Part shown: positions 1 through 57,713 of the stretch, in pieces | Numbering within the stretch: the stretch's first letter is position 1 | Layout: the number at the start of each line of letters is the position of its first letter | DNA from: an uncultured Candidatus Saccharibacteria bacterium | GTDB lineage: Bacteria > Patescibacteriota > Doudnabacteria > UBA920 | Direction: 5' to 3' | DNA: 64,000 nt | Assembly (NCBI GenBank): GCA_964474825.1 | Contig: CAYYWQ010000001.1 | Span: 613,609 to 677,608, forward strand | Program-made: the position numbers and the translations under genes | The notes under the pieces: model-generated | The model's database searches: none | Told to the model about the DNA's origin: nothing | Seen by the model: the letters and a program-made list of their open reading frames with translations, nothing else

Positions 1-2451
1 CTTTAGGCGCGAAAGTTGCTTTATTGCTTTTGCCAGTTCTTCGTTGCGCTCCTGAGGCAGTGGGTAAGTCGCCATGTTAAAAGGCTTACTTGCTGTGCCG
101 CTTATCATAAGTTTGGTATATGTAGTAAACCGCTCTATGTTAACCAAATCAAACTGGTTAAATGTTGGGGCAAATTCTTTACCCAAAACTTCCGCGTCCT
201 CAGCGCCTGTACGGAACACAATCATAGTCCCCACGTTACCAAAAACCGCGTCGCGCAAATCTTTACTGCCGGCTCCCTGGGCCCCAGCCTGGGTTTCTAA
301 TTGTCCCAAGTATTGATGGGCCACTATTAAATTTAATTTATATTTTCTGGCCTCGGAAAGAATAGAAGAAAAGGCGTCGGTAATAAAATTCTGAAACTCG
401 TCCACATACAAATAAAAATCTTTTCTCTGGTCTTCTGGAATGTCAGCGCGGGACAGCGCAGCAATTTGGATTTTGCTAACTAAAATTAAACCTAAAAGCT
501 TAGCGTTAATTTCCCCGGTCCTGCCTTTGGACAAGTTAACAAGCAAAACTTTTCCCTCGTCCATAATTTTACGGAAGTTAAAACCGCTTTTGGGCTGGCC
601 TACTATGTTGCGCATCATGGCATTTTCCACAAAACGCCCAACCTTGGAAATTAAATAGCCAAGCATTTCCGACTTATGGAAATCCGAAGTTTTGGCCATT
701 TCTTTTTCCCAAAACAGACGAACCACAGGGTCTTTAAGTTTCGCAATTTTGTATTTTTGGAAATCAGTATCCGTAAAAATACGAGGGATGTCTGTAATAG
801 TCCCCGGGTGCTCCTCGTCCGCCATAAGCGTTAACATGGCGTTTCTCATATTGTGTTCAAACATGGGGCCAAGCATGGCCGGGTCAGTTACCAATTTGTA
901 AAAAATCTGGATCATTTCCTGCACCGCGAAATCTTTTTGTTCCTCGCTATCTACTTCTAGCATATTTAACCCAAGCGGTCTGTCCATGTCAAAAGGCTCA
1001 AACACAATAATGTCTTCGGCCCGCTCTTTAGGACAGCGCGTTAAAATATCTTCCACCAAGTCGCCATGAGGGTCTATAACACAAAGACCTTCGCCATTCT
1101 TAATATCCTGAATTGCCATGTTTGCTAAAAGCACGGATTTACCTCCACCGGTTCTTCCAAGAATATAAGTATGCCGCCTGCGGTCGTCACGCCCCATATA
1201 AATAGGAGTTTCCTGGCCGCGGTAAACATTTTTACCTAGTAGTAATCCTTCTTTTAGGCCATTTATGGGTGGCGGCGCTTTTTTTGACGTAAGCCACTTA
1301 ATGTTAGGTGTTTCGGTGTAAGGCGTAGGCAAATGCCAAAGACTTGCCAATTCTTCCGTGTTAACTATATTAGCTTGGCCGCTGTCGCGAAAAACACGAA
1401 AAATATAATCTTTAAGAATATCATTTTTGTCACGACGTTTTTCCTTAAGGCCGTTAAACGGCGGCATATTAAACTGCAAAAAAGATGACAACAAATTCCT
1501 CATGTGGCTTTTTGCGTTGCCGGGCGTGGGGGAAGAAGTCACCAAACGAATGTTTATTTTGTATCCGGGCCTGCTGGCTTTTTCTTCCAGTTTTTTTACA
1601 ATTTCATTTTGCATTGGTGTGAGCTGTATGGGCGAGCCGTAACCGGAAAGGTCTTTATGCGCGTGCGAAGGCTGCGAGCCTTTGTTCCCTTGTCCCACAC
1701 CGGCCAGGGCGCTTCCAAATGCCCGGAAAATACCAATGAACAGGCGGTAAACATGGCCGCGCTCTATAAGTTCCGGATTCTTACCCTGCTGTATTTCTAA
1801 AGCCATGTGCCGCGGCACACCCTGCCAAGTAGTCCCAGCCGGAGAAATTATAAACTGTATTGCCGCGCCTTCATTCTCGTCCAACTTACTCATTGCGTTA
1901 GTCAAAGAATTCAGGGGATCTGACTCTGTAACTTTGTAAGTCCGCAAAGGATAAACGTATTTTTTGGTAAGCTGTAATTCCTCCACTTCAATTTGGCCGT
2001 CGTCTTGGAACGGATTATAACCGCGCACTTGCTCCACAAAAGCAAAAGGATACTGCGCCTGGATTTGTTTTTCCACCAGTTCCTGCAAATGCTTGGGACA
2101 GTTAACAAAGAAAGATATTTTTTTGTCCGTACAGGCAATTTCAAAACTGTAATAATCTTTTCCCTGCAGCCAACCTTTGCTATGCCCGCTTTCCGAAAGC
2201 GTGGTAAAAAGTTGTTCTGCTACGGCAATTAGCAGTTTCTTTTCGTCCGGTGTTTTAGGTTTGTCTTTTTCCTCGGCATTGTCTTTAGGCACCATAATTT
2301 CCAAAAACACCCAATCCAGAGTTCTTGGCACAATATGTTTAGTGTGGTATATATGACGCTTATAGTAATAAAAAAAGACAGCCGCAAAAACGACTATCAA
2401 TCCAAGCAAAGCCAAGAATACAATATTAACTGTTGATAATTCAAACGACAT
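1..2451 (-). CDS. VirD4/TraD (TrwB/TraG)-family coupling-protein-like P-loop ATPase, 3'-partial (runs off window start)
   Basis: Absent from ORF track because no stop lies inside the window. Hand translation of reverse strand from ATG (2451-2449) gives an uninterrupted 817-codon frame to position 1. In-frame TAG a few codons upstream of the ATG. N-terminal TM helix VNIVFLALLGLIVVFAAVFFYYY, Walker A GRTGGGKS, Walker B LYVDEFQNF. Confidence 0.6.
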   Translation of the reverse strand, partial: MSFELSTVNIVFLALLGLIVVFAAVFFYYYKRHIYHTKHIVPRTLDWVFLEIMVPKDNAEEKDKPKTPDEKKLLIAVAEQLFTTLSESGHSKGWLQGKDYYSFEIACTDKKISFFVNCPKHLQELVEKQIQAQYPFAFVEQVRGYNPFQDDGQIEVEELQLTKKYVYPLRTYKVTESDPLNSLTNAMSKLDENEGAAIQFIISPAGTTWQGVPRHMALEIQQGKNPELIERGHVYRLFIGIFRAFGSALAGVGQGNKGSQPSHAHKDLSGYGSPIQLTPMQNEIVKKLEEKASRPGYKINIRLVTSSPTPGNAKSHMRNLLSSFLQFNMPPFNGLKEKRRDKNDILKDYIFRVFRDSGQANIVNTEELASLWHLPTPYTETPNIKWLTSKKAPPPINGLKEGLLLGKNVYRGQETPIYMGRDDRRRHTYILGRTGGGKSVLLANMAIQDIKNGEGLCVIDPHGDLVEDILTRCPKERAEDIIVFEPFDMDRPLGLNMLEVDSEEQKDFAVQEMIQIFYKLVTDPAMLGPMFEHNMRNAMLTLMADEEHPGTITDIPRIFTDTDFQKYKIAKLKDPVVRLFWEKEMAKTSDFHKSEMLGYLISKVGRFVENAMMRNIVGQPKSGFNFRKIMDEGKVLLVNLSKGRTGEINAKLLGLILVSKIQIAALSRADIPEDQRKDFYLYVDEFQNFITDAFSSILSEARKYKLNLIVAHQYLGQLETQAGAQGAGSKDLRDAVFGNVGTMIVFRTGAEDAEVLGKEFAPTFNQFDLVNIERFTTYTKLMISGTASKPFNMATYPLPQERNEELAKAIKQLSRLK

Positions 2452-5292: not shown

Positions 5293-5796
5293 TTACTTTC
5301 TCATTTGCGCTAATTGTTCTTTACTGCGCATTTTAGCAAAAGCAGCAAACACAGCTTTAACATTGTTAACTTTGTTGTTACTGCCCAACATTTTGCTGAC
5401 CACGTTGGTCACGCCTGCCAAATCCATCACACTGCGCACAGCGCCGCCGGCAATAACACCAGTACCTGGCCTGGCCGGTTTAAGCATTAGGCTGGAGGAT
5501 TTATACTTTATGTTTAATCCATGGGGAATAGTACCGTTAACCAAAGGCAAGGTAATCATAGTCTTTTTAGCGGCTGCAACTGCTTTGTTTACGCTCTCAG
5601 AAACGTCCGCGCCTTTCTTAAGGCCCATGCCGACTTTACCTTTGTGGTCACCAATAACTACTAAAGCACGGAAACGCATTCTTTTTCCGCCGGCAACAAC
5701 ACGGGTAACACGTTTAACTTCCACCACTTTTTGGTCGAATTCATTGCGTTCCCTGTCGCCGCCTTCTCTGCCTGATTGTCTGCGTCTTTTTTCCAT
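5293..5796 (-). CDS. rpsE: 30S ribosomal protein S5
   Basis: 167 aa, S5 dsRBD and C-terminal domain motifs. Confidence 0.93.
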   Translation of the reverse strand: MEKRRRQSGREGGDRERNEFDQKVVEVKRVTRVVAGGKRMRFRALVVIGDHKGKVGMGLKKGADVSESVNKAVAAAKKTMITLPLVNGTIPHGLNIKYKSSSLMLKPARPGTGVIAGGAVRSVMDLAGVTNVVSKMLGSNNKVNNVKAVFAAFAKMRSKEQLAQMRK

Positions 5797-14572: not shown

Positions 14573-14708
14573 TAAAACGGGCACGATTTGCCCGCATCAA
14601 TAAACGAAAGAATGTCTTTCTTTTACTTATGAGAGTAAATCGTTTTCTAATTTGCTAAGCTTTGTTGCGCTATCGCGAACTAGAACTAATTCACAAAATA
14701 TTTTTTTA

Positions 14709-15032
14709 CTAACTCATTTTAATCTCTACGTCTACACCGGCCGGTAAATTCAAATTTGTAAGGGAATCTATGGTTTTTGGTGTGGCGTCTAGAATATCAA
14801 TCAACCTTTTATGCACGCGCATTTCAAACTGTTCGCGGCTGTCTTTATGAACAAAAGTACTGCGCAAAACCGTATACTTGGTTTTGTCAGTCGGTAGCGG
14901 AATGGGCCCGGAAATAGTGGCTCCGGTCCTTTTGGCAGTATCCACAATTTGTTTAGCGCTTTGATCAATTAACTTATGATCGTAAGCTCTAATTTTAATG
15001 CGGATTTTCGGCTTTGCAGAGTCCTTGTCCAT
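14709..15032 (-). CDS. rpsJ: 30S ribosomal protein S10
   Basis: 107 aa. Confidence 0.93.
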
Positions 15033-15122
15033 TTGTTAAAGATGCCTTAAATGCGTGCCTTATTTGGGCGATTAAATGATATTAAATCAGGCCTTTTATA
15101 TAGCCTTTTACGTACTTGCAAT

Positions 15123-15151
15123 AGTTTATACGACTTATTCAAAATTGTCAA
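15123..15151 (-). promoter_or_regulatory. candidate sigma70-type promoter of the S10 operon (TTGACA-17-TAAACT)
   Basis: minus strand TTGACA at 15151-15146, 17-nt spacer, TAAACT at 15128-15123, about 90 nt upstream of the rpsJ ATG. Confidence 0.4.
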
Positions 15152-15235
15152 GGATTTCATAGTATATTGACAAATTATATCAAAAATGTCATAGTATAAG
15201 GTAAATTTTAAGGAGGCTTTAAACTAGGAAGCATT

Positions 15236-15286
15236 GGTCATAGCAATAAGATTCTATAAATCTTATGGTTTTTTATTGCTATGACC
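15236..15286 (+). promoter_or_regulatory. perfect 14-bp inverted repeat (nested hairpin) engulfing the start codon of the lipoprotein gene
   Basis: GGTCATAGCAATAA ... TTATTGCTATGACC with inner AAGATtctataaATCTT; the ATG at 15281 lies in the right arm; strong AAGGAGG 65 nt upstream. Confidence 0.5.
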
Positions 15287-15832
15287 AACCCAAAACTGCT
15301 TGTAACAGTGATAGTTTTAGCCACCCTGATTCTCGCTTCGTGCGGGACCCAGGCTCCGGCCAACAACAAGCTCATCGCTCCAACCGAGTCCAAGCCTGTT
15401 AAATCTCAACCCACGACCACTACACCGACCCCCGCCCATACCAACATCGAGACTGACACTGCCAGCAAGCTTACGCTGGCCCAAATCGAGCCGGAGTTAG
15501 AAAGGCTGGATACACGGTTGGATGAAGAGTATGACGCCCTTAAGGGTCATCTCAAAAAGGGCAACGAGGCCGACGTCCGGAACGAACTCAACTCCGTGTT
15601 GCGAACCGAACAGAAAAGGCGGAAAGTCATCGCCCGTTACACGGAGCTGACCAAAAAGAACCATTTCCTCACATACCCCATTCTCTGGAACGATCGTCTG
15701 GATGAAGCTGGGGAGCTCACTAAGGTAGCCGTCTCGAAGTTCAGTGTTCCCGAGCTCGAGAAGTGGAAAAAGATGGCCGGTACGATACCCTCTAACCCGG
15801 ACGGGGTTGAGGTTTGGTTCACAAACCGCTAA
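15281..15832 (+). CDS. putative lipoprotein (GC-rich, foreign codon usage)
   Basis: 183 aa; signal peptide with lipobox LASCG; Pro/Thr-rich linker; codons CTC/GAG/ATC/GCC in contrast to the host AAA/TTT/ATT bias. Confidence 0.6.
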   Translation: MTNPKLLVTVIVLATLILASCGTQAPANNKLIAPTESKPVKSQPTTTTPTPAHTNIETDTASKLTLAQIEPELERLDTRLDEEYDALKGHLKKGNEADVRNELNSVLRTEQKRRKVIARYTELTKKNHFLTYPILWNDRLDEAGELTKVAVSKFSVPELEKWKKMAGTIPSNPDGVEVWFTNR

Positions 15833-15886
15833 CCTCCAGCCCTCGACAGGGCTGCGCCGGCAATATCACCGCTTCCTAGTTACTCC

Positions 15887-15928
15887 TGGAGACGAACAGA
15901 CCCCGCTTGCTGTTCGTCCCCTTTTTCC
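15887..15928 (+). terminator. rho-independent terminator after the lipoprotein gene
   Basis: GACGAACAGaccccgcttgCTGTTCGTC then CCCTTTTTC. Confidence 0.55.
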
Positions 15929-16096
15929 CGCTCACGAAAATTCGCGAGTGGAAAATTGTTAATTTATAGTTAAATCTTTCCTGGAAATGTGGGTAAAATA
16001 TTTTTTACCTATTTTCCCCTGGGAGATTTGTTTAGTCTTCGTGACCAATAAGTATCTGGTCACAAAAGCAGGGGTTTTCAATAGGGAGAATTAGAA

Positions 16097-16393
16097 TTGC
16101 CAGAACCACGTTGGCTGCTGGAAGCAGCCTTAGAAGGACTCTCTGTCGAAAGACAGAGACTCGAGCAACAGATCGCGGCTATCCGAGCGGGGGGAATCGC
16201 ACCCCCAACGGGGCCTCGGACGCATCGCCGCACAAGAAAAAAGCGGCACATGAGCGCAACAGGCAGAGCAGTAGTATCTGCCGCTCAGGCAGTGCGGTGG
16301 GCCTCTACGCCTGCAGAAAAAAAGGCGGCGAAGGCAAAACTTGCTCAGGTCCAGCAAGTTCACCAGATGAGGAAGAAAAAGGCCAGCCGTTAG
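16097..16393 (+). CDS. small basic coiled-coil protein (TTG start), GC-rich
   Basis: 98 aa, N-terminal helical LEAALEGLSVERQRLEQQIAAIRAG then Arg/Lys-rich tail; GGGAGA Shine-Dalgarno 8 nt upstream; 7-bp palindrome GTGACCA-n9-TGGTCAC at 16041-16063 upstream; other frames overlap, so the frame choice is tentative. Confidence 0.4.
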   Translation: MPEPRWLLEAALEGLSVERQRLEQQIAAIRAGGIAPPTGPRTHRRTRKKRHMSATGRAVVSAAQAVRWASTPAEKKAAKAKLAQVQQVHQMRKKKASR

Positions 16394-16451
16394 GCTGACC
16401 AAAACGGAGGAAAAATAAAACGGACGCAGATCCGTAAGCAGTTAGCTCTAT

Positions 16452-16493
16452 GCCGGCGCCCACTTGAGTGCGCCGGCAGTTTTTTTTATTTTT
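16452..16493 (+). terminator. rho-independent terminator
   Basis: GCCGGCGCccacttgagtGCGCCGGC followed by T9. Confidence 0.7.
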
Positions 16494-16550
16494 GAGTCCT
16501 TATACGTTACTGCACTAGTGCATTAGTGCAAAAGGGCTAGGTCATTATAC

Positions 16551-16586
16551 AAAAACTCCTCCCAGAGATGGGAGGAGTTTTTGATT
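16551..16586. terminator. bidirectional terminator immediately downstream of tuf
   Basis: AAAAACTCCTCCCAgagaTGGGAGGAGTTTTTG. Confidence 0.7.
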
Positions 16587-16618
16587 TTCCTAAAAGCTAA
16601 TAGCAAGCAGCTAAAAGC

Positions 16619-17806
16619 TTACTTGATAATTTTTGTGACTACGCCAGCGCCTACAGTGTGGCCGCCTTCGCGGATGGCGAATTTGCCTTTTTCTTCTAGG
16701 GCTACTGGGGTGATTAATTTGATGACTAATTTAACAGTGTCACCAGGCATAACCATTTCCTGTCCTTCTGGAAGAGTTACGTCACCAGTCACGTCGGTAG
16801 TACGAATGTAGAACTGGGGTTTGTAACCTTTAAAGAACGGGGTGTGGCGTCCGCCTTCTTCTTTGGTCAAAACATAAATTTCAGATTCAAATTCCGTGTG
16901 AGGAGTAATAGAACCCGGTTTGCACAAAACTTGTCCGCGTTCTACTTCTTCTTTTTTAGTACCACGGAGCAAAATTCCGGCGTTGTCCCCTGCCATACCG
17001 CTGTCCAACTGTTTGTTGAACATTTCAATACCGGTTACAACTGTTTTGCTTGTTGGGCGAATACCAACGATTTCAATTTCTTCGTTGATCTTAATTTGCC
17101 CGCGTTCAATTCTACCAGTGACCACGGTACCGCGGCCTTCAATAGAAAAGATATCTTCAATAGGCATTAAGAATGGCTTTTCAACTTCGCGCTTTGGGTC
17201 AGGGATAAAAGAATCCAAAGTTTCCATTAATTTCAAAATGGAAGCTTCACCCATTTCGGAAGTGTCGCCTTCCAAAGCTTTTAAGGCACTGCCACGAATA
17301 ATTGGAGTGTCTTTGCCTGGGAATTCATATTTGGTCAAAAGGTCGCGGATTTCTTCTTCTACTAAGTCCAAAAGTTCAGCGTCCTGGACCATGTCGCACT
17401 TGTTCATATAAACGACAATGTAAGGAACGCCTACCTGCTTAGCTAAAAGAATGTGTTCGCGAGTCTGGGGCATTGGGCCGTCAGCGGCGGATACAACCAA
17501 GATAGCTCCGTCCATTTGGGCGGCACCGGTAATCATGTTCTTAATATAGTCGGCGTGTCCTGGACAGTCCACGTGCGCGTAGTGGCGCTTAGCTGTTTCG
17601 TATTCTACGTGCGCGGTGTTAATTGTAATACCACGGGCTTTTTCTTCTGGGGCGTTGTCAATGCTATCATAAGCACGGGCCTTGGCGCCACCGGTCTTGC
17701 TGAGTACCGTAGTAATAGCAGCAGTCAAAGTGGTTTTACCGTGGTCAACGTGACCAATGGTTCCTACATTGACGTGCGTCTTGCTACGGTCAAATTTGTC
17801 TGCCAT
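16619..17806 (-). CDS. tuf: elongation factor Tu
   Basis: 395 aa, [18 protein letters not shown]. Confidence 0.97.
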
Positions 17807-17977: not shown

Positions 17978-18607
17978 CTAATTAGCAAACTTAAAGGAGC
18001 TCAAAAAATCTTTTTCTTCGGCACTTAAATCTTCCGCACCGGCTTTGTTGCCAAAAAATATTTCATAAAGATGACCGTTGTGCTGAATAAAAACAACATA
18101 ATAAACACCAAGACCTCCCTGACTAAAACCATAAGCAGTAACACCGCCAACTTTTATTTCCTTTACGTTAGACACGGTTTGCATTTTTGAAAGCAAGTCC
18201 GGTACCGTTGTAGCCTGTATGTTATTGCTAGCGTTTTCCGGATAGTCAGCAATGCTTTCATAATAATTTATAGTTACGTCGTTCTGGTATCCTTCCCCAT
18301 ACATTTCCCCTGACTCTACTTGCCTAAGCAGGCCCATGTTTTTAGGGCTATTAAAAAGGATCACCCTCTCATTAATTGCGTACTCAAGCCAATTAGCAGG
18401 GCAGGCCACACTATAACCAAGGGTAGAGTTTACATATGTCTGACATGAGACAAACTTGTCTGCAATTTTTTGGAAAGCATCGACTTGATCTGTTGGACTC
18501 GGGCTTTGTGTGGGAGTGGGACTTGGCGCAGGAAGGATAGCGGTATTTTTACCACAACCAGCTGCCAACATAATTACTGCGGCAATAATAAAATATTTTT
18601 TTATCAT
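17978..18607 (-). CDS. putative lipoprotein (paralog 1)
   Basis: ORF track runs to 18763; preferred start is the internal ATG at 18607, giving MIKKYFIIAAVIMLAAGCGKN (signal peptide plus lipobox); avoids overlap with the upstream gene; Pro/Thr/Ser linker. Confidence 0.6.
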   Translation of the reverse strand: MIKKYFIIAAVIMLAAGCGKNTAILPAPSPTPTQSPSPTDQVDAFQKIADKFVSCQTYVNSTLGYSVACPANWLEYAINERVILFNSPKNMGLLRQVESGEMYGEGYQNDVTINYYESIADYPENASNNIQATTVPDLLSKMQTVSNVKEIKVGGVTAYGFSQGGLGVYYVVFIQHNGHLYEIFFGNKAGAEDLSAEEKDFLSSFKFAN

Positions 18608-18614
18608 AACTATT

Positions 18615-19280
18615 TTACTTAATAAATCTAAAGTTGCCTCGCACAGGATCAAGCTTCGACCAAATTTGGCCTTTGTCGACTTCTTGTCTTGGAGGATTAC
18701 TTTTAACGTCAGTCCAAATAATGGTTTCATTAATTTGATAACACGTTTTATTATGATAACCACGGCTAATATGGGATTGGGTATGTTGCCCGGCTACAAT
18801 GTTGTCGCTCATGGCCGTAACAAATGTCACGCCATTTACTACTATAGGATTTTCCAAGTGTCCCAAACCTAACTCGGAAGCGGGGAATTCAGCGCATTTT
18901 GACAAGTCTGCCCGGTCAGTGCGCACCCTGACAGTAACTGCGGCGGAATTAAAATTAGTGCCTTTGTAAGGCTCACTTTTTAAAACAAAACAAACCTTGG
19001 GTGACTCACCCCCAACATTACACGCGGGTGAATTTTTTAACATAGTAAAATCACTAGTATAACCAATACTAAACACACCGGACGGGTCTTTATAAACAGA
19101 CAAAGTAAGGGGTGGGGTTTTAGGAATAACGGAAGGTGCAGTCGTCGTTGCCGTTGGAGTCGGCGAAGCGCTAGGGGTAACACTGGGTTGATTTTTTTCG
19201 GGAGCCAAAGAAACCGGCTGTGGCTTAGAACAGGCGGCTGCTAAAACTAAAACTGCTGCGATTGCAAAATATTTTTTCAT
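18615..19280 (-). CDS. putative lipoprotein (paralog 2)
   Basis: 221 aa, MKKYFAIAAVLVLAAACSKP signal peptide plus lipobox, Pro/Thr linker; tandem with paralog 1. Confidence 0.6.
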   Translation of the reverse strand: MKKYFAIAAVLVLAAACSKPQPVSLAPEKNQPSVTPSASPTPTATTTAPSVIPKTPPLTLSVYKDPSGVFSIGYTSDFTMLKNSPACNVGGESPKVCFVLKSEPYKGTNFNSAAVTVRVRTDRADLSKCAEFPASELGLGHLENPIVVNGVTFVTAMSDNIVAGQHTQSHISRGYHNKTCYQINETIIWTDVKSNPPRQEVDKGQIWSKLDPVRGNFRFIK

Positions 19281-19332
19281 GTTTGGTGCTTTTAGTTACT
19301 TTAGGATTTGGTAAAGAATTTCTGTAAGAAAT

Positions 19333-19755
19333 TTATAGGTCATCTATTTCCACCTTTGGCCCTTCAAAATCAAAACTTGGATCTATGACTTCGGCGCGCA
19401 AATCTTGGCGTGGAATGTGGGATTGAAACTCAACCTTTGGACCAAAATCCGCGGGCCTACGGGTTGGCTTTGGGTGTTCTACAATAGGAGTTATTTCCGG
19501 CTCTTGCAATTGCGCTTTTAAAATTTCCCTGTTAATTTTTTCAACATCTTCAACTTGCTGTTTTACCTGGCGCTGAAGTTTCCCCAAAAGCATGCGTTGG
19601 TAATCTTCCACATTCATAATAACTAACTTTACATCCCCGCCTTCGTCAATAACAAAAAACTTCCCGCCATCTGCTTTTGCTAGACTGATTATGTCTTGTA
19701 AATTTCCCATTACAGATTTATGATTAAGGATTGGAGATTTAAGAAAAAGATGCAC
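19333..19755 (-). CDS. hypothetical protein (weak Phd/YefM-like N-terminal resemblance)
   Basis: 140 aa in the track; alternative start at the ATG at 19710 (MGNLQDIISL...); KFFVIDEGGDVKLVIMNVEDYQRML segment. Confidence 0.4.
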   Translation of the reverse strand: MHLFLKSPILNHKSVMGNLQDIISLAKADGGKFFVIDEGGDVKLVIMNVEDYQRMLLGKLQRQVKQQVEDVEKINREILKAQLQEPEITPIVEHPKPTRRPADFGPKVEFQSHIPRQDLRAEVIDPSFDFEGPKVEIDDL

Positions 19756-19903: not shown

Positions 19904-20152
19904 ATGGAGGAAACAATTGTGATGCAACAGTTGGCGGGACGTATTCGCAACCCTCAAAGACCCCCCAGAGTCACTTTATACCTAAAAAGTGGCCACAAGG
20001 TTACGGGTGACATGCAACAATTGCATGATGGGTGGATTGTCCTAAACATCACCCGCTGGTGGGAGCTCTTCGGGGATTACAGGTACTTTACTTGTCACCC
20101 GTCCCAGATAGTGGGATACAGCGCTAAGGGAATTGACCAGCCGGCGTTGTAA
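19904..20152 (+). CDS. hypothetical small protein, GC-rich with strong Shine-Dalgarno
   Basis: 82 aa; GAGAGGAGGA 5 nt upstream of the ATG; codon usage unlike neighbouring genes. Confidence 0.45.
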   Translation: MEETIVMQQLAGRIRNPQRPPRVTLYLKSGHKVTGDMQQLHDGWIVLNITRWWELFGDYRYFTCHPSQIVGYSAKGIDQPAL

Positions 20153-20278: not shown

Positions 20279-22402
20279 TTACATACCCTTACGTACGTTG
20301 ATACCAGCACGGCTTTCAATAATTTTTGTGGCTACGGCTTTTGGTACTTCGGCGTAATGGTCAAATTCCATGGTGTAGGAAGCTTGACCTTGGGTCATAC
20401 TTCTAAGAGAAGTAGCGTAACCAAACATTTCCGCCAACGGCACAAATGCGTCTATAACTTTTAAGTGCAGGCGGTCTGTCATTTCGTTAATTTGCGCGCG
20501 TTTGCTGTTTAAATCACCAATTACGTCGCCCATGTTGCTGTCCGGCGTTATAACTTCCACTTTCATTACAGGTTCGAGAATAATTGGGTCAGCGTGTTTT
20601 ACGGCGTCTTGCAAAGCTTTGGAACCGGCAATTTTGAAAGCCATTTCACTGGAGTCAACTTCGTGGTAGCTACCGTCAAAAGCAGCTGCTCTAAAGTCCA
20701 CCAAAGGATATCCGGCAATTACACCGTTAGCGGCAGATTCCTGAATACCTTTGTCGATTGGTTTAATATATTCTTTTGGAATAGCTCCACCAACAATTTC
20801 GTCTAAGAACTCGTAACCCTTACCGCGTTCCATAGGTTCAACGCGCAAGTAAACGTGTCCATATTGTCCGCGTCCACCAGTTTGACGAATGTATTTGCTT
20901 TCAGCTTCCGCTGTTTTCTTGATGGTTTCTTTGTAAGCAACTTCCGGTTTACCAACATTGGCTTCCACTTTGAACTCGCGCTTCATACGGTCAACAATAA
21001 TTTCCAAGTGAAGCTCACCCATACCGCCAATAATGGTTTGCTGGGTTTCTTCGTTTGTGGAAAGTCTAAAGGTCGGATCTTCTTCGGCCAACTTGCCCAA
21101 AGCAATACCCATTTTTTCCTGGTCTGCTTTGGTCTTAGGCTCAATGGCCATGGAAATAACCGGTTCAGCGAATTTAATTCTTTCTAACTGAATTGGTTTG
21201 TCTACATCGCAAAGAGTGTCTCCGGTAAAAGTATCTTTAGGTCCTACAAGGGCACAAATGTCGCCGGCAAAAACTTCTTTAACTTCTTCACGGTCGTCAG
21301 CCTTCATTCGCACAATACGGCCAACGCGTTCTTTATTTTGGGTACGGGCGTTTAGCACATAAGAACCGGCTTCTAATTTTCCGGCATATACGCGGAAGAA
21401 GCACAAACGTCCTACGAATGGGTCTGTAGCAATTTTAAAGGCTAGGGCTGTAAAAGGTTCGTCGTCTGTTGGCATTCTTTGAATGTCCGCGCCTGTTTTT
21501 AAGTCGTGCCCTTTTACGGCACCGCGGTCTGTTGGGCTTGGCAAAAAGTTGGTTACAGCGTCTAAAATTGTTTGCACAATAATTCCGCGACCGTCTCCGC
21601 CCAAAACCGGATAAAATTTAGCGCTCTGCACAGCCTTACGAATAGCAGTCAAGAATTCATCTTCCGTAAGTTCGCTGCCTGCCAAATATTTTTCCATTAA
21701 TACATCGTCACTCTCAACAACTTTTTCTAAAAGACGGTGTCTATATTCTTTAGCTTTTTCAAGCATGTCGGCCGGAACTTCACCAACTGTAAATTCTTTG
21801 TCGGTAAAATCTTTATAGGTGTAGGCCTTCATGTTAATTAAGTCCACAACTCCTACAATGTCTTTTTCAAAACCAATTGGTAATTGAATAGGAAAAGCGT
21901 TTGGGGACAAACGTTTATGTATGCTGTCCAGAGATTTGTAAAAGTCTCCCCCGGTCTGGTTGATTTTGTTAATAAAGCACATGCGAGGCACGCCGTATTT
22001 GTCGGCCTGGCGCCACACAGTTTCGCTCTGGGGTTCTACGCCCATTTTGCCGTCGAACACAACCACCGCACCGTCCAAAACACGCAAAGAACGCTCCACT
22101 TCCACGGTAAAGTCCACGTGGCCTGGAGTGTCAATGATGTTAATTTTGTGCTTGGTATCTTTAGCTAATTTAATAAAACGGGGCGTCCAATAGCAAGTCA
22201 CCGCGGCCGCAGTAATTGTAATTCCGCGTTCGCGTTCCTGTTCCATCCAGTCGGTTGTGGTTTCACCTTCGTGCACCGCGCCGATTTTATGGATCATACC
22301 AGTGTTATACAAAACACCTTCTGTTACCGTGGTCTTACCTGCGTCAATGTGCGCAATAATACCAATGTTACGGGTATACTCAATTGGAAATTCTCTGGGC
22401 AT
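20279..22402 (-). CDS. fusA: elongation factor G
   Basis: 707 aa, AHIDAGKTT, full EF-G domain order. Confidence 0.97.
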
Positions 22403-29871: not shown

Positions 29872-31068
29872 ATGGACGAACAAAGTATGCAAGAGCCCAA
29901 GCAGGGAGGAGCACTTAAATGGCTAGTAGCCATTTTTGTAATAGCAATAATAGTCTTAGCAGTAGTAATGGCTCGCAAAAACAAAGGCGGAGAAACTGCT
30001 GGCACCACCGAAGTCGCTGGGGATACTTATAAAATTGGGGTTCTTTTACCTCTTACTGGTGACGCGGCAGCGTATGGTGAAATTATGCGCAACGCCGAAC
30101 AAATTGCCTTTGACGAAATAAATAACGCGGGAGGAATCAACGGAAAAAAACTGGAACCAATTTTTGAAGACGGCAGATGCAACGGCCAAGACGCAACTAA
30201 TGCCATGCAAAAATTAGTTAACGTTGACCACGTGCAAGTTGTTGCCGGCGGTTTCTGCAGCAGCGAGTCCATTGCCGCGGCTGCAATTGCAAATACAAGT
30301 AAGGTCCTATTGCTCTCCGGAGGCTCCAGCAGTCCCAAGCTAACCGGGATTAGCCACTTTTTCTTCCGGAACTATCCAAGCGACGCTACTCAAGGACAAG
30401 TGTTAGCAGACATTTCCTACAACAAGGAGGGTTTTAAAAAAGTAGCGTTCATTCAAGAACAACAAGACTACGCACTTGGTATTTACCAAGCCTTTAGCGA
30501 TGAATTCCAAAAACTCGGTGGTAAAGTTGTAAAAGAGGAGTATCCCAAAGAAGCAGCTGACTTTAGATCACAATTGGTTAAATTAAAATCTGAAAACCCT
30601 GACGCTTTATTTTTAGACACCCAAACCCCGGCGGCTGCCCAAAGAATTGTTAAACAACTCCAAGACCTTAACTGGAAACCGAGGCTATTAATGTCCGACC
30701 AAAATGCGGGCGACAGCGAATTGCTTTCGGGAAATAAAGCATTCTTGGAAGGCGCATTAGTTGCTGAATTTGGAGTTGATGAAAATAATCCAAAATTTAA
30801 ACAGTTAAATGAATCCTATAAACAAAAGTATGGCAAGGAAATGGATTTTAAGAGTTACACACAAACAGTCTACGATTCCATCTACATAATTAAAGACGGA
30901 ATAACCGCTGTGGGTTATGACGGCCAAAAGTTAGCTGACTGGTCAAGGACTATTAAAGATTGGCCGGGAGCTTCGGACTTTGTAACAATACAAGACAACG
31001 GCGATCGCGCCAGCGGCCATAAACCGGAAATTATTAAAGACGGCAAAACAGTTCCTTACACCAAATAA
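29872..31068 (+). CDS. branched-chain amino acid ABC transporter substrate-binding protein (LivJ/K family)
   Basis: 398 aa, N-terminal TM/signal, Peripla_BP_6-like YKIGVLLPLTGDAAAYGE. Confidence 0.8.
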   Translation: MDEQSMQEPKQGGALKWLVAIFVIAIIVLAVVMARKNKGGETAGTTEVAGDTYKIGVLLPLTGDAAAYGEIMRNAEQIAFDEINNAGGINGKKLEPIFEDGRCNGQDATNAMQKLVNVDHVQVVAGGFCSSESIAAAAIANTSKVLLLSGGSSSPKLTGISHFFFRNYPSDATQGQVLADISYNKEGFKKVAFIQEQQDYALGIYQAFSDEFQKLGGKVVKEEYPKEAADFRSQLVKLKSENPDALFLDTQTPAAAQRIVKQLQDLNWKPRLLMSDQNAGDSELLSGNKAFLEGALVAEFGVDENNPKFKQLNESYKQKYGKEMDFKSYTQTVYDSIYIIKDGITAVGYDGQKLADWSRTIKDWPGASDFVTIQDNGDRASGHKPEIIKDGKTVPYTK

Positions 31069-31084
31069 TATCTGCGTCAGCAAT

Positions 31085-31120
31085 TTAAAGGCTCACCCGT
31101 GGTGAGCCTTTAAATTTGTT
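31085..31120 (+). terminator. rho-independent terminator after the first substrate-binding-protein gene
   Basis: AAAGGCTCACCcgtGGTGAGCCTTT then AAATTTGTT. Confidence 0.65.
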
Positions 31121-31147
31121 GATGAGTAAGACAAATTTTAGTATAAT
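31119..31147 (+). promoter_or_regulatory. promoter for the livHM-SBP-livGF operon (TTGATG-17-TATAAT)
   Basis: TTGATG 31119-31124, 17-nt spacer, TATAAT 31142-31147, ATG at 31154. Confidence 0.5.
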
Positions 31148-31153
31148 CCCAAC

Positions 31154-32020
31154 ATGAGCATTTTGCCTCAGTTAATTTTAAACTCTATTATTGCCGGCAG
31201 TATTTACGCCCTGCTGGCTATGTCTTTTAACCTCATTTTCGGCGTTACAAAATTCTTTAATTTTGTCCACGGCTCATACTCCGTTGTAGGCGGGTATGTG
31301 GTTTTTTATTTGTTAAAAACTCTGGGCTGGCCTTTTTATTTGGCAATAATAATTGGGGTCATTGCCGCGGGGCTTTCCGCTTATATTTTAGACAAATTGG
31401 TTTACTTGCCACTACGTAAACGCAAAAGCACCGACACAGTTAAGCTCGTTGCCTCAATTGGATTATTTACAATAATCCAAGCCGCAGTAGCCATATTTTT
31501 TTCCAGCCAATTTAAAACTCTATCGAATTCCCAAATTCAGCAAAAAATTTACCAAATTTCTACCGGCGTAATAACCCAAACGCAATTAGTAATGCTAATT
31601 TCGGCTTTGGTAGTTTTTGCCGGACTTATGCTCTTGTTTAAATTCAGCTTATTCGGCAAAGCCATAAAAGCGGTGAGCGACGACGAAGAGGTTGCCAAAA
31701 TTGTTGGCATTAATACCAACAGAATAATTGCCGCTGTATTTTTTATTGGCGCTACTATTTCCGGCGGGGCCGGGATTTTAACCGGTTTTGACACAGGCAT
31801 AGAACCTACAATGGGTTTACACTTATTTTTGAAAGGCGTGATTGCGGCTGTTATTGGTGGAACTGGTAGCGTACCCGGCGCTTTTTTAGGAGCATTCCTT
31901 CTTGGCTTTGCAGAAAACTTTGGCATTTGGAAAATTAACGGCGAATGGAAAGACGCAATTGCTTTTGGACTTTTGATAATCTTCCTACTCTTCCGCCCAT
32001 CAGGCATTATCAAAAAATAA
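31154..32020 (+). CDS. livH: branched-chain amino acid ABC transporter permease
   Basis: 288 aa. Confidence 0.8.
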   Translation: MSILPQLILNSIIAGSIYALLAMSFNLIFGVTKFFNFVHGSYSVVGGYVVFYLLKTLGWPFYLAIIIGVIAAGLSAYILDKLVYLPLRKRKSTDTVKLVASIGLFTIIQAAVAIFFSSQFKTLSNSQIQQKIYQISTGVITQTQLVMLISALVVFAGLMLLFKFSLFGKAIKAVSDDEEVAKIVGINTNRIIAAVFFIGATISGGAGILTGFDTGIEPTMGLHLFLKGVIAAVIGGTGSVPGAFLGAFLLGFAENFGIWKINGEWKDAIAFGLLIIFLLFRPSGIIKK

Positions 32021-32023
32021 TTT

Positions 32024-32890
32024 ATGGAATACTTAATACATCTTGCAATTTTATTTTCCATATACGCGATATTGGCATTATCGCTCAATCTAATTTTTGG
32101 CTACACCGGGTTACTTTCCCTAGCTCATGCCGCGTTCTTCGGCATAGGCGCTTACACTACCGCCATTCTAACCACTCAATATGAGTTTAACTTTTTCTTA
32201 TCCCTGGCCATTGGAATAATCCACGCAATGCTTGCCGCCGGACTTATTGGTTATGTGCTGAGCAAATTTAAAGGAGATTATTACGCCTTAGGGTCTTTAG
32301 GTTTTACTATTATAGTTTTTGCCATAATGCTTAACTGGCAAAGTTTAACCTCCGGCCCTTTGGGGATTCCAGGAATCCCCCGTCCCGTTTTATTCGGCAT
32401 AGATTTTTCCCAAAATTTAAATTTCCTTTTACTGACTACTATTTGCTTACTGCTTGTCTATATAGTCTGCCGTTTTATTGTTAACTCTTCATTCGGAAGG
32501 GTGCTTAAAGCCATTCGCGAAGACGAAGAGGCTATACAAGTATTTGGCTACAACGCGCATCATTTTAAACTTGCCATATTCACTATTGGCGCTGGGCTTG
32601 CGGCAATCGCAGGCAGTTTATTTGCCGCTTACATTACATACATTGACCCCAGCACTTTTGGCTCCAACGAATCGGTTTACTTATGGTCCATAATTATTTT
32701 AGGCGGACTGGCAAGTTTGCGAGGTTCAATTTTAGGAGCTTTGTTTTTGGTCTTGTTGCCAGAAGCTTTAAGGTTTGTGGGCTTTCCAACCGAAATAGCC
32801 GCCCAAATGCGCCAGTTGGTTTATGGACTTCTTTTAGTCTTACTGATGTTATATCGGCCGCAAGGCTTAATTGGGGAATACAAGTTATAA
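32024..32890 (+). CDS. livM: branched-chain amino acid ABC transporter permease
   Basis: 288 aa. Confidence 0.75.
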   Translation: MEYLIHLAILFSIYAILALSLNLIFGYTGLLSLAHAAFFGIGAYTTAILTTQYEFNFFLSLAIGIIHAMLAAGLIGYVLSKFKGDYYALGSLGFTIIVFAIMLNWQSLTSGPLGIPGIPRPVLFGIDFSQNLNFLLLTTICLLLVYIVCRFIVNSSFGRVLKAIREDEEAIQVFGYNAHHFKLAIFTIGAGLAAIAGSLFAAYITYIDPSTFGSNESVYLWSIIILGGLASLRGSILGALFLVLLPEALRFVGFPTEIAAQMRQLVYGLLLVLLMLYRPQGLIGEYKL

Positions 32891-32932
32891 TCTTTAAATT
32901 TTCAATCTTTAAATTTTTCAATTAATTACTCC

Positions 32933-34066
32933 ATGTCCAAACCTAACAAAATTATTCTAATCTCGCTGGTAATTGTAGCCGCTTTGGTCTGGTTTATTTA
33001 TAACAGAGGAGCCAAAACCGCTGACCAAGCCACTATTAAAATTGCCGCGCTAATTCCCCTTTCGGGAAATTCCGCCGGCCAGGGAGAATTAATTAAACAA
33101 GGTTTAGATTTAGCGCTAGACGAAATTAGTAGTAGTGGACAAAAAATTGAAATTGTTTATTCCGACACTCAAGGTGATTCCAAAAAAGCCGTAGGCGCTT
33201 ATTTAGATTTAAAGTCACGCGAAAACATTTCTGCAGTAATAACCTGGGGCTCTTCGGTAGCCATGGCTATTTCGCCCCTGTCTAACCAAGACCATATAAT
33301 CCAAATGGGAGTAGCTACAGCGGCTTCCCAGTATCGCAGCCTGCACGATTATAATTTCCGCAACTACCCCACTGCAGACCAGGAAGAACAATTTTTAACT
33401 CAAGCGGTAAAAGAAAAATTTGGTACAAATAAAAAAATCGCTATTTTTTACATTAACAACGACGCCGGCAAAAGCTCGGCCCAAAATTTTACACAAAATT
33501 GGCAGAAACTGGGAGGAAAAATTGCTTTTAACGAAGGTTTTGACGGCAGTCAAACAGACTACAGGAGTGAGCTGGCTAAAATAAAAATTACCAGTCCTGA
33601 TATTGTAATTTTAATGGGCTACCCAAGCGAAACCGGTATTATTTTAAAGCAGGCCCGCCAACTGGGAATTACGGCGCAGTTTATTTCGCCATCGTTTGTA
33701 CTGGGACCTGAAATGATAGAAGCGGCAGGTGATTCAGCTGAAGGCCTTCTCGTGGCCGACTCTTCCCCGGACATAAACACCAAGCCCAGCCAGGAACTTA
33801 AAACTTTCGCAGAAAACTTTAACAAAAAAATAGGACACCCCCTTACTGCCCAGGAAATTTATTCGCTGCGCTCCTACGATGCCTTGCGCGCTTTGGCAGC
33901 AGGCTTCAAACATTGCAATGATGATACAGTTTGCGCTCAGAAGGAATTAGAAAAAATAAATTTACCCGGACCATCCGGAAACGTTGCTTTTGACGAATAC
34001 GGGGATATAAAAGCTAATTTCCATTTTGTACAGTTCAAGAACGGCGTACCGCATCAAATTAATTAA
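32933..34066 (+). CDS. second ABC transporter substrate-binding protein (LivJ-like)
   Basis: 377 aa, N-terminal TM anchor, ALIPLSGNSAGQGE. Confidence 0.75.
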   Translation: MSKPNKIILISLVIVAALVWFIYNRGAKTADQATIKIAALIPLSGNSAGQGELIKQGLDLALDEISSSGQKIEIVYSDTQGDSKKAVGAYLDLKSRENISAVITWGSSVAMAISPLSNQDHIIQMGVATAASQYRSLHDYNFRNYPTADQEEQFLTQAVKEKFGTNKKIAIFYINNDAGKSSAQNFTQNWQKLGGKIAFNEGFDGSQTDYRSELAKIKITSPDIVILMGYPSETGIILKQARQLGITAQFISPSFVLGPEMIEAAGDSAEGLLVADSSPDINTKPSQELKTFAENFNKKIGHPLTAQEIYSLRSYDALRALAAGFKHCNDDTVCAQKELEKINLPGPSGNVAFDEYGDIKANFHFVQFKNGVPHQIN

Positions 34067-34069
34067 AAG

Positions 34070-34801
34070 GTGATGATTCTCCAAACTAAAAACTTGACCA
34101 AGCACTTCCAAGGAGTTTACGCTTTAAACGGTGTGTCTTTAAATTTTGAAAAAGGGCAAATCACCGGAATTGTCGGACCAAACGGCAGCGGAAAGTCTAC
34201 CCTGACTAATTTACTGTCCGGCATTTTTCCTTTTGACAGTGGTTCTGTAATTATAGACGGAGTGGAAACTAAAAAAATACAGCCTTACGACTTGCCGGAA
34301 TTTGGCATCACCAGGAGTTTTCAGGAAATTCGGCTGTTTGAACAAATGACGGTGCTAGATAATATTCTAGTTGCACTGACATCGCGAAATGTTTTAAGCG
34401 CGCTTTTTGAAAAACATGGCGAGCATCATTTAAAACAAGCTGAGCAAATTTTAAAAACCATTGGCCTTTGGGAAAAACATAAACAGCTGGCAATAAATTT
34501 GTCCTACGGCCAAAGGAAGCTTTTGGAAATTGGCCGGACACTCGCCATGGATGCTAAAATATTTTTGTTTGACGAACCCTTTGCGGGCTTGTTTCCGGAA
34601 ATGATCAAAATTGTTGTTAACGTAATGCGGCAATTAAAACAACAGGGCCGCACAGTTATTTTAATAGAGCACAACATGGACTTAATCCGCCAGCTTTGCG
34701 ATTATTTATATGTGTTAGACGGTGGCGAACTTTTGGCACAAGGGCATCCGCAAAAAGTCCTAGAAGAAAAAAAAGTTATTGAAGCTTATTTAGGCGAATA
34801 A
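34070..34801 (+). CDS. livG: branched-chain amino acid ABC transporter ATP-binding protein
   Basis: 243 aa, GPNGSGKST. Confidence 0.85.
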   Translation: MMILQTKNLTKHFQGVYALNGVSLNFEKGQITGIVGPNGSGKSTLTNLLSGIFPFDSGSVIIDGVETKKIQPYDLPEFGITRSFQEIRLFEQMTVLDNILVALTSRNVLSALFEKHGEHHLKQAEQILKTIGLWEKHKQLAINLSYGQRKLLEIGRTLAMDAKIFLFDEPFAGLFPEMIKIVVNVMRQLKQQGRTVILIEHNMDLIRQLCDYLYVLDGGELLAQGHPQKVLEEKKVIEAYLGE

Positions 34802-34809
34802 ATCATGGA

Positions 34810-34865
34810 TGTCATCCCGACCGAGGACGAGTGCATCCGAGTCCGAGCGGAGGGACCCCTTAAAC
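34810..34865 (+). repeat. ~56-nt repeat (copy 1) flanking livF
   Basis: tgtcatcccgaccgaggacgagtgcatccgagtccgagcggagggaccccttaaac; about 50 of 56 identical to 35612-35667. Confidence 0.6.
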
Positions 34866-34866
34866 A

Positions 34867-35604
34867 ATGACAAAAAATATGGATAACGAAATTTTACTAC
34901 AATTAAAAAATGCCAGCGTTCATTATGGGGGCGTAAAAGCTTTGAACGATGTTAGCATTGCCGTGGACGAAGGCCAGGTTGTGGCATTAATGGGACCTAA
35001 TGGCGCCGGAAAATCCACAGCTTTAAAAGCCATGTTTGGTTTGGCTAAGTTAGACAGCGGGCAAGTGCTTTGGCATGAGCAAACCATAAAACCCATTACA
35101 TACCAAATGCCGTCTTTAGGCCTGGCTTTTGTGCCGCAGGGGCGTAGGGTTTTTACGCATTTAACAGTGGAAGAAAATTTGGAAATTGGTGGCTACATTA
35201 TAAACGATAAACAAGAAATTAACCGCCGCAAAAACGAAGTCTTAGAATTGTTTCCTGGCCTTAAGCATAAAAAAAATGCCAAATCTGGCACTCTTAGCGG
35301 CGGACAACAACAAATGCTGGCAATAGCCAGGGGGCTTATGACAGACCCTAAAGTTTTGCTACTTGATGAACCTTCGTTAGGACTAGCACCAAAAATAGTA
35401 AAAGAAGTTTTTGCCACAATTAAAGACATTAACCTCCGCCATAAAACGGCAATAGTAATTGTTGAACACAACTTAAAATCACTTTTGGAAATAGTAGACC
35501 GGGCCTATGTTTTAGACAAAGGCCAAGTTGTGGCTAAAGGCTCAGGCAAAGAAATTATTAATAGTGATATTCTAGAAAAAGTTTTTTTGGGAAAGCCTTT
35601 GTAA
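34867..35604 (+). CDS. livF: branched-chain amino acid ABC transporter ATP-binding protein
   Basis: 245 aa, GPNGAGKST. Confidence 0.85.
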   Translation: MTKNMDNEILLQLKNASVHYGGVKALNDVSIAVDEGQVVALMGPNGAGKSTALKAMFGLAKLDSGQVLWHEQTIKPITYQMPSLGLAFVPQGRRVFTHLTVEENLEIGGYIINDKQEINRRKNEVLELFPGLKHKKNAKSGTLSGGQQQMLAIARGLMTDPKVLLLDEPSLGLAPKIVKEVFATIKDINLRHKTAIVIVEHNLKSLLEIVDRAYVLDKGQVVAKGSGKEIINSDILEKVFLGKPL

Positions 35605-35737: not shown

Positions 35738-35811
35738 CGGGCTGTAGTATACCGGTAGTACGCATGCATGGGGTGCATGTAGACCGGGTTCAATTCCCGG
35801 CAGCCCGACCA
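35738..35811 (+). tRNA. tRNA-Pro (anticodon GGG)
   Basis: Hand-folded cloverleaf: acceptor CGGGCTG/CAGCCCG, D-stem GTAT/GTAC, anticodon stem CATGC/GCATG with loop ATGGGGT, T-arm CCGGG TTCAATT CCCGG, discriminator A, encoded CCA. Confidence 0.8.
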
Positions 35812-35813
35812 AA

Positions 35814-35847
35814 GAAAAAAGTGCGACCTTGTGTCGTGCTTTTTTCT
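35814..35847. terminator. terminator hairpin after tRNA-Pro
   Basis: AAAAAAGTGCGACcttgtGTCGTGCTTTTTT. Confidence 0.55.
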
Positions 35848-35892
35848 TTGTGGTAAGAGCTGTCCTGAGCGAAGCCGAATGGGCAGCCCGAC

Positions 35893-35932
35893 CAAAAAAA
35901 GACATATAACATTGTTGTGTGTCTTTTTTTGG
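35893..35932. terminator. second A-run/hairpin/T-run terminator
   Basis: AAAAAAAGACAtataacattgttgtgTGTCTTTTTTT; preceded by the GGCAGCCCGACCAAA duplicate of the tRNA-Pro 3' end at 35881-35896. Confidence 0.55.
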
Positions 35933-36045
35933 TGAAATAAAACAATGGGGAGGAGCCATTGTCGTTTGTAGATAGTATCACATGTTACGCGATAATGCTC
36001 TAAAACAGCAGTGACTCACTCCCCAAATTGCGATGATAGCTCTGA

Positions 36046-57685: not shown

Positions 57686-57713
57686 CCGCAGACTACTATC
57701 TACAATCTACTAA

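Follow-up and report, generated by a model that had tools for sequence, protein, structure and literature searches.

How do two genes of foreign-looking composition come to lie between rpsJ and tuf, inside a str-S10 ribosomal supercluster that is usually uninterrupted? The question is raised by a 64-kb stretch of DNA from an uncultured Candidatus Saccharibacteria bacterium, the whole of which we call the window. In it, the gene for ribosomal protein S10 (rpsJ, 14709-15032, minus strand, first gene of the S10 operon) and that for elongation factor Tu (EF-Tu; tuf, 16619-17806, minus strand) are separated by 1,586 bp, exactly positions 15033-16618, as delimited in an earlier note on this DNA. Only two open reading frames (ORFs) are plausible as genes within this spacer, each with its own terminator and both on the plus strand as that note had described. 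ORF1 (15281-15832) translates into a predicted lipoprotein of 183 amino acids, and ORF2 (16097-16393), with a TTG start, into a basic three-helix protein of 98 amino acids. We read the spacer as a clade-specific accessory gene islet with a foreign-type composition and a turnover of its genes, not as a recent strain-specific insertion, and give this reading a probability of roughly 0.65.

The tuf-rpsJ junction in related genomes

Is an occupied junction unusual? The earlier note held that tuf and the S10 operon are normally adjacent, and our survey agrees. We compared 50 species-representative genomes and 68 metagenome contigs holding both tuf and rpsJ. The median gap at these 118 loci was 113-119 bp, most gaps were between 13 and 364 bp, and nine exceeded 500 bp. 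The larger gaps of other lineages held co-directional genes of host-like composition. One of them, in Sodalis, is a precedent for genes at exactly this junction: its gap of 2,275 bp holds ORFs of 64 and 159 amino acids that, by their sequence, we take to be Bfd and bacterioferritin. The bfd-bfr pair found between tufA and rpsJ in Enterobacterales is, however, co-directional with tuf and rpsJ, host-like in composition and of known function (iron storage), and it is unrelated to ORF1 and ORF2. Literature searches returned nothing specific to the rpsJ-tuf locus.

The top matches of the tuf and rpsJ genes of the window were metagenome-assembled genomes of Patescibacteria, that is of the candidate phyla radiation (CPR), the nearest being labelled 'uncultured Candidatus Saccharibacteria'. 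The S10 proteins of the relatives L002, L082 and L083 are about 90-94% identical to that of the window. In L002 (EF-Tu 90%, S10 91% identical) the gap measures 1,621 bp and carries two opposite-strand genes, one for a 109-residue orthologue of ORF2 (pairwise E = 3e-7) and the other for a 207-residue TPR protein. L164, a near-identical strain of L002, agrees with it in promoter and leader and, within the small basic gene, over the C-terminal half. Their small proteins have unrelated N-terminal halves, that of L164 (364-690, protein P0005) being like ORF2 of the window and that of L002 (2519-2848, P0004) being unlike it, a swap that suggests an exchange by recombination within the gene. In L082 (S10 94% identical) the gene for P0003, a homologue of ORF1, sits beside rpsJ at the same divergent position. 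The S10 promoter, the ORF1 promoter, a AAGGAGGC box, the signal-peptide region and the terminator can all be aligned between L082 and the window. The cargo downstream in L082 is a 79-residue secreted peptide and other small ORFs, with no tuf within 2.3 kb. Finally, L083 (S10 92% identical) has other cargo at the same junction, a thymidylate-synthase-family gene (1-802, minus strand; Pfam E = 3e-18) that diverges from rpsJ and is preceded by a perfect AAAGGAGG site, with no tuf in more than 1 kb upstream of rpsJ.

A search for the empty site that a recent insertion should have left among these relatives failed, all four having genes divergent from rpsJ. Empty junctions appeared only at an S10 identity of 83% or below, and there tuf lies 69-77 bp from rpsJ. 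The lineages carrying the islet are themselves far apart, with protein identities of 71-77% for rplC and 47-62% for rplW and a DNA identity of 75-83% for rpsJ. Since orthologues are found at the junction in lineages this distant, the insertion predates their split, at which ribosomal proteins have come to be just 62-77% identical, and its content has turned over since. The earlier note had named an orthologous insertion of the same composition in all relatives as the result that would speak against acquisition; this is partly what we found, the junction being occupied in four of four near relatives and empty further out.

These data bear directly on one rival explanation, that a two-gene cassette entered the junction by horizontal transfer recently and in this strain alone. 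It would agree with the strong anomaly in composition and codon usage, with Shine-Dalgarno (SD)-like sites inside a host that does not use them, and with the fact that both proteins were singletons among 5.8 billion proteins in a word-indexed search. However, the sole homologue of ORF1 occupies the same divergent position beside rpsJ in L082, with promoter and terminator alignable, and the orthologue of ORF2 lies in the same gap in L002 and L164, across the large divergence just described. There is also no integrase, flanking direct repeat or tRNA. As far as gene order can tell, synteny already largely refutes a recent insertion, which we regard as quite improbable. The claim of horizontally acquired cargo in the earlier note is consequently to be divided: the composition supports it as regards foreign character, but not as a recent arrival in an intact locus.

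Could the junction be a product of the assembly, a foreign GC-rich fragment joined by mistake between two contigs of ribosomal genes? A compositional step at both borders is what such a chimera would produce. Yet the relatives show the same architecture, and the Logan assembly of run SRR14271372 contains a contig that reaches from rpsJ through the islet into the start of tuf and is 100% identical over 2,936 bp. This identical and independent contig indicates that the junction is not an assembly artefact, and we give a chimera hardly any weight. The Pfam family Ribosomal_S10 is recorded for the identical rpsJ gene on it. Look-ups of the exact S10 and EF-Tu proteins for strain-level relatives returned this same contig or nothing.

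Composition, codon usage and translation signals

The genome is low in guanine plus cytosine (GC), the window having about 42.4-42.5%, and the earlier note had already remarked that the two genes depart from it. Our figures bear this out: GC is 53.4% in ORF1 and 57.9% in ORF2, and over the full 64 kb GC peaks in the 600-nt interval 15301-15900 (0.545, other peaks reaching 0.52-0.53). At third codon positions (GC3) the values were 0.658 and 0.535, against a mean of 0.407 (standard deviation 0.059) for the other 64 ORFs. A per-amino-acid G-test of synonymous codon choice ranked ORF1 first and ORF2 second in deviation among 64 ORFs (p = 2.6e-14 and 9e-5, combined p = 2.6e-16). The shares in the islet and in the host were 37% and 5% for CTC among Leu codons, 64% and 10% for ATC, and 55% and 22% for GAG, and AAC was used in 11 of 11 cases in the islet. 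Because the deviation lies in the choice among synonymous codons, the anomaly is not a by-product of the content in Pro, Thr and Ala, the other way in which the earlier note had allowed it to be explained. The coding-strand skew of both ORFs also differs from that of about 60 other genes of the window. Among the criteria for genomic islands, atypical base composition and atypical codon usage both apply to the islet.

The translation signals were another point of the earlier note, which ascribed GGAGG-type SD sequences to both genes and none to the host genes. The second half stands, as the host genes are essentially without SD (a core of even 4 nt is present in about 6 of 62). The first half does not: the 25 nt preceding the ATG of ORF1 contain no SD, its AAGGAGG at 15210-15216 being 64 nt upstream, and ORF2 has only an SD-like GGGAG (16084-16088, plus strand) located 8 nt before its TTG. 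It has been found that the anti-SD motif was lost in some Parcubacteria (PMC9297842). In all four relatives SD-like sites precede the island genes (GGGAGG, GGGAGAG, GGAGAGAG and AAAGGAGG), and the adjoining ribosomal genes have none. The sites in L002 and L082 that resemble the GGGAG of ORF2 are GGGAGAG or GGAGAG.

As a separate observation on translation signals, the 10-mer CTACCAGCTA occurs in seven minus-strand copies in the window (4730, 8109, 8895, 11378, 11773, 13060 and 14512), each 15-25 nt before the start of a gene of the S10/spc cluster. G-poor leaders with this 10-mer stand there in place of SD sites; the equivalent leaders of L002 and L082 did not show it.

Is the composition compatible with no transfer at all? 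The genes could be native to the clade and vertically inherited, their composition resulting from low expression, from their position on the lagging strand or from control of the leader and of translation. That genes are found at the same place in the relatives agrees with such an origin, as do the host-like GC3 of the island genes of L002 and the restriction of the known ORF1 family to this clade. Against it, among 64 ORFs the choice of synonymous codons deviates most here, beyond any effect of amino-acid content, and six host genes that are also on the plus strand (29872-35604) have a normal GC3 of 0.36-0.42. Moreover, the ORF2 family is present in unrelated GC-rich bacteria, for example in L163 at 61% GC, and the gene content of the junction differs among near relatives. 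We consider a purely native origin rather unlikely, if with some claim to attention.

The lipoprotein gene of L082 has a GC3 of 0.54, compared with 0.40-0.45 for the ribosomal genes of L082, and in all three genomes (the window, L082 and L002) the leucine codons of the island genes are preferentially CTC or CTG and those of the ribosomal genes TTA or TTG. A test for donor-like codon usage, in which likelihoods were computed under the ribosomal backgrounds of L002, L082 and the window, did not discriminate among them.

Several points weigh against our reading of the spacer as an old, foreign-type islet of changing content. The island genes of L002 have a GC3 of 0.56-0.60, like that of their host (about 0.55), so a native and ancestral origin is possible for the small basic gene. 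The codon anomaly persists in the orthologues of the window and of L082 in spite of saturated synonymous divergence, a persistence not readily accounted for by one old transfer. The known near relatives number just four, three of which are represented by short contigs, and 'occupied' means for L082 and L083 merely that no tuf lies within 1-2.3 kb of rpsJ. The searches identified no donor lineage for the islet genes, and the functions of the two proteins are read from features of their sequences, with no match in Pfam or NCBIfam or among structures.

A repeated replacement from a GC-richer pool, such as relatives of the L002 type, is a possible explanation for the persistence of the anomaly. 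With an islet that is old and turns over, the events would be as follows. Foreign-type DNA would have entered the junction in an ancestor of the clade. Later, cassettes would have come, gone or given way to others, and the highly conserved flanking genes, tuf and rpsJ, may have anchored the recombination involved. Bacterial genomics has the general concept of small islets that occupy hot spots of insertion between core genes, and the present case resembles them in having atypical accessory genes between core genes, a content that varies at the junction and no mobility genes. It differs in its tuf and rpsJ flanks, in its two small genes of unassigned family and in belonging to a reduced CPR genome.

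We can also offer a broader proposal, with little confidence, in which intergenic sites in and near the ribosomal supercluster, and tuf-rpsJ in particular, would serve the clade as landing pads for small GC-rich, SD-led cassettes that are exchanged among CPR lineages or come from hosts, through recombination in the flanks. If this doubtful proposal were true, the SD-led genes with structured leaders would be a separately controlled translation class in an SD-less host, for instance surface and DNA-binding factors with condition-dependent expression. As to the hosts themselves, the earlier note had contemplated genes coming from the organism on which an epibiont lives. Our homology searches gave no evidence of this, nothing among their matches pointing there.

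The two genes, their control signals and the question of mobility

Judged from their sequences, ORF1 and ORF2 are genuine genes. The word-indexed search of 5.8 billion proteins found for each of them only itself, and Pfam, NCBIfam and PHROGs gave nothing above threshold for either. Sequence searches against solved structures yielded only signal-peptide or coiled-coil noise. An exhaustive HMMER search was needed to find P0003, and a profile built from two sequences to find the ORF2 family.

The N terminus of ORF1 (MTNPKLLVTVIVLATLILASCG) has the form of a signal peptide with the lipobox LILAS-C21. A charged N-region, a hydrophobic core and a lipobox of the type [LVI][ASTVI][GAS]C near residues 15-25 are all present (MTNPK-LLVTVIVLATLILAS-C21), and the protein is probably lipid-anchored outside the membrane, at the cell surface. 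Next come a linker rich in Pro and Thr, a helical hairpin at residues 66-124 and a C-terminal part with conserved sequence (TYPI[LM]WN ... DG[VI]EVWF), so the mature protein would carry a flexible linker and a helical domain. The AlphaFold model is poor, with a mean predicted local distance difference test (pLDDT) score of 54, and is confident only at residues 60-130; Foldseek matched it to nothing but generic helical hairpins, all at E above 0.6. P0003 of L082 was the sole match (172 amino acids, 45% identity, E = 2e-25) when the exhaustive HMMER search was run on 1.84 billion representative proteins. Their alignment shows an identical LILASCG lipobox and the common blocks TEQKRR, TYPI[LM]WN and DG[VI]EVWF. 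ORF1 is a fast-evolving lipoprotein.

Assignment of ORF1 to the LprI/DUF1311 lipoproteins (PF07007) was considered and rejected. The likeness is that of a lipoprotein with a helical domain, and the profile match (residues 66-112, E = 0.059) scored 14.2 bits, below the gathering cut-off of 22 bits. P0003 did not match that profile.

Two predicted sigma-70-like promoters, found in a scan with consensus sequences, stand back to back between rpsJ and ORF1; the S10 operon and ORF1 would be transcribed from them divergently. The first (TTGACA-17-TAAACT, 15123-15151, minus strand) belongs to a block kept in L082. The second (TTGACA-17-CATAGT with a TG extension, 15167-15195, plus strand) has 10 of 12 consensus matches, and its TATTGACAA and -10 region are kept in L082, as is the arrangement of the pair. 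The ORF1 leader of about 80 nt would then contain the conserved AAGGAGGC box followed by a very stable hairpin. The TTTAAGGAGGC box (15207-15217, plus strand), placed 64 nt before the ATG, has its counterpart at 3139-3149 of L082 and occurs only once in the window; it is too distant to act as an SD at the ORF1 start codon. The hairpin (15234-15288, plus strand, inverted repeat I1) has an 18-bp outer and a 6-bp inner stem, and its 3' arm holds the start codon (15281-15283). RNA folding gave it -33.8 kcal/mol (z = -5.4), and none of 200 shuffled sequences was as stable. At the equivalent place in the L082 leader there is a hairpin of unrelated sequence with z = -5.6. The start codon is covered by the hairpin in the window and not in L082. 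Since the hairpin buries the start codon, translation of ORF1 would probably need its opening, and this occlusion suggests translational control or a stabilisation of the mRNA. The possibility that the hairpin is a repeated element was discarded, no second copy being found in the window.

A possible parallel, no more than a lead, is the STAB-SD of cryIIIA in Bacillus thuringiensis, reportedly an SD-like mRNA stabiliser in the 5' leader, together with hairpins that occlude start codons. The common feature is an AAGGAGG close to the predicted 5' end and remote from the start codon, with a strong hairpin behind it, in positions shared between the window and L082. The differences are that the present host, whose 16S rRNA has its 3' end outside the window, seems not to use SD, that the hairpin sequences are unrelated and that the 5' end is a predicted one.

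ORF2 has the more widespread family. It consists of an N-terminal LEAALEGL helix, a basic linker and a RKKRxMSAxGRxxxxAAQxxRW helix. AlphaFold models it well (mean pLDDT 83) as three helices at residues 5-30, 54-67 and 72-97, and this confident model had no significant match in the PDB. The profile built from ORF2 and its counterpart in the L002 gap recovered P0004-P0008 with E values from 7e-57 to 9e-5. The members have in common an N-terminal AALEGL helix and the motif [RK]K[RK]R[KH]MSA..[RK]..I.AAQ..RW, both found in ORF2, and the alignment has K48, R50, M52, S53, A54, A63, Q64, R67 and W68 as invariant residues. To judge from these features, the N-terminal helix of the protein probably serves for dimerisation, and nucleic acid would probably be bound by the basic linker together with the C-terminal helix. 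As a lead, AT-hook proteins are similar insofar as the linkers of distant family members (P0007 and P0008 only) bear GRPPG-type AT-hook-like motifs; the linker of ORF2 itself (GPRTHRRTRKKRH) has no GRP core and lacks the R-G-R-P core of an AT-hook. The MSAxxRxxIxxAQxxRW helix of the family resembles NUMOD3-type motifs. None of six family members matched a Pfam model, that of NUMOD3 included, at E up to 10, one spurious hit apart. The distant members are found in unrelated GC-rich bacteria. The gene of one of them, P0009, has a D-tyrosyl-tRNA deacylase gene on one side and a cobalt transporter operon on the other, in a contig of 61% GC, a setting that gives no functional clue.

The leader of ORF2 contains an imperfect hairpin (15972-16029, plus strand, inverted repeat I2), the core of which, GGGTAAAATA ... 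TATTTTCCCC, is kept in the leader of the L002/L164 orthologue. Three hairpins of the islet are of the rho-independent type by their sequence, GC-rich and directly followed by a T run. The intrinsic terminator of ORF1 (15888-15926, plus strand, inverted repeat I16) is formed by GGAGACGAACAG ... CTGTTCGTCCCC and then TTTTT, and its TTCGTCCCCTT end is kept in L082. That of ORF2 (16451-16487, plus strand) is formed by TGCCGGCGC, a 10-nt loop, GCGCCGGCA and eight T; the terminator scan missed it because its loop limit was 8 nt. The statement of the earlier note that the island has its own terminators is right. The third is a perfect 15-bp hairpin flanked by runs of A and T (16550-16583, inverted repeat I4), a predicted bidirectional terminator that most likely serves tuf.

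The palindrome GTGACCA-n9-TGGTCAC (16041-16063), in which the earlier note saw an operator, is present, but the role proposed for it is not tenable: about 1.5 inverted repeats of 7 bp with a spacer of 3-20 nt are expected by chance per island, and the homologous leader of L002/L164 lacks this palindrome. The heptamer TGACCAA, a pattern picked out after the data had been viewed, occurs 20 times in the window compared with 7.7 expected, five of the copies being within the 1.6-kb islet (15234, 15282, 15648, 16042 and 16396). An 11-mer, GCTGACCAAAA, has exact copies at 15646 and 16394.

Are these the remains of a mobile element, a prophage or an integrative or miniature element, that targeted the junction? 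The promoters and terminators of its own that the islet has would suit such an origin, and so would its many hairpins (27 overlapping hits of 7-bp inverted repeats for the 1.5 expected), the enrichment of TGACCAA (5 of the 20 window copies) and a similar GC-rich, SD-led stretch beside a tRNA-Pro elsewhere in the window. However, family searches found no integrase, recombinase or transposase in the two ORFs, and the longest direct repeat spanning both borders (D4) measures 15 nt at 80% identity, with none longer. No tRNA lies within 19 kb of the islet that could have served, as tRNA or tmRNA, for an attachment site; no relatives of its genes appeared among phage records, plasmids or IMG/VR viral contigs, nor a PHROG match; and the leader hairpin is single in the window. 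We find a mobile-element remnant very hard to credit. The same contrast holds with tRNA-linked islands and prophage remnants, which the islet resembles in its compositional difference from the host and in having its own promoters and terminators, and from which it differs by the lack of an integrase, a border tRNA, direct repeats and phage or plasmid homologues.

Neighbouring sequences and significance

The islet adjoins a long minus-strand S10-spc cluster of ribosomal genes (rplB, rplW, rplD, rplC and then rpsJ). No gene for L30 was found between those for S5 (5293-5796) and L15 (4777-5211), and the absence of L30 is a trait of CPR bacteria (PMC9297842). In the 216-bp spacer between rpsJ and rplC, directly after rpsJ and inside the operon, a terminator-like hairpin GCGGGCAAATCGTGCCCGT is followed by TTTAATTT (14577-14595, minus strand), which from its sequence may be an attenuator. 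The ORF-free stretch 1-2475 was examined as an anomaly and dismissed, being merely a long minus-strand gene that runs past the edge of the window. On the other side of tuf lies fusA (20279-22402). The interval between both (17978-19755, minus strand) holds extra genes of host-like GC: an ORF of 140 residues (19333-19755), weak homologues of which lie upstream of tuf at other CPR loci, and two genes for lipoproteins (18615-19280 and about 17978-18600).

Four further small, GC-rich, SD-led ORFs are located at three other intergenic sites of the window; as this set was picked after viewing the data, it is a lead and not a test. The first, of 82 amino acids (19904-20152, plus strand), has an AGGAGG site and a GC3 of 0.59 and lies between fusA and the 140-residue ORF. 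It is a second foreign-looking small gene that interrupts the str cluster on the opposite strand, and it had no family match. Two more (36046-36246 and 36672-36842, minus strand) are found in an ORF-poor stretch right after a tRNA-Pro (35738-35811). This stretch (35812-37770) has 1.9 kb without a long ORF and GC up to 0.52, Rfam recognised in the region only the tRNA, and the stretch is possibly what remains of an element that had integrated there. The fourth encodes a coiled-coil protein of 74 amino acids (57306-57530, minus strand; GC 64%, GC3 0.69) with two GRPPG-type AT-hook-like motifs. Its region (57250-57700) includes an AAGGAG site, a promoter-like site of its own and a terminator. It is flanked by a 433-residue ORF (55815-57116) and a 404-residue ORF (57714-58928), presumably glycyl-tRNA synthetase and tRNA-guanine transglycosylase (tgt). 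Its architecture resembles that of the ORF2 family; as a relative of ORF2 it was rejected, hhalign giving a probability of only 11%, and we claim no relation.

What does the islet mean for these bacteria? Current understanding is not changed by it. It indicates that the tuf-S10 junction, among the most conserved adjacencies of bacteria, can hold a variable set of accessory genes when the genome is that of a reduced CPR bacterium. Two protein families are defined: a clade-restricted lipoprotein, a candidate surface factor of what is probably an epibiont, and a family of small, basic, helical proteins with a scattered distribution. The contrast of an SD-led island with SD-less host genes is, besides, a simple marker for genes that are foreign or specially regulated.

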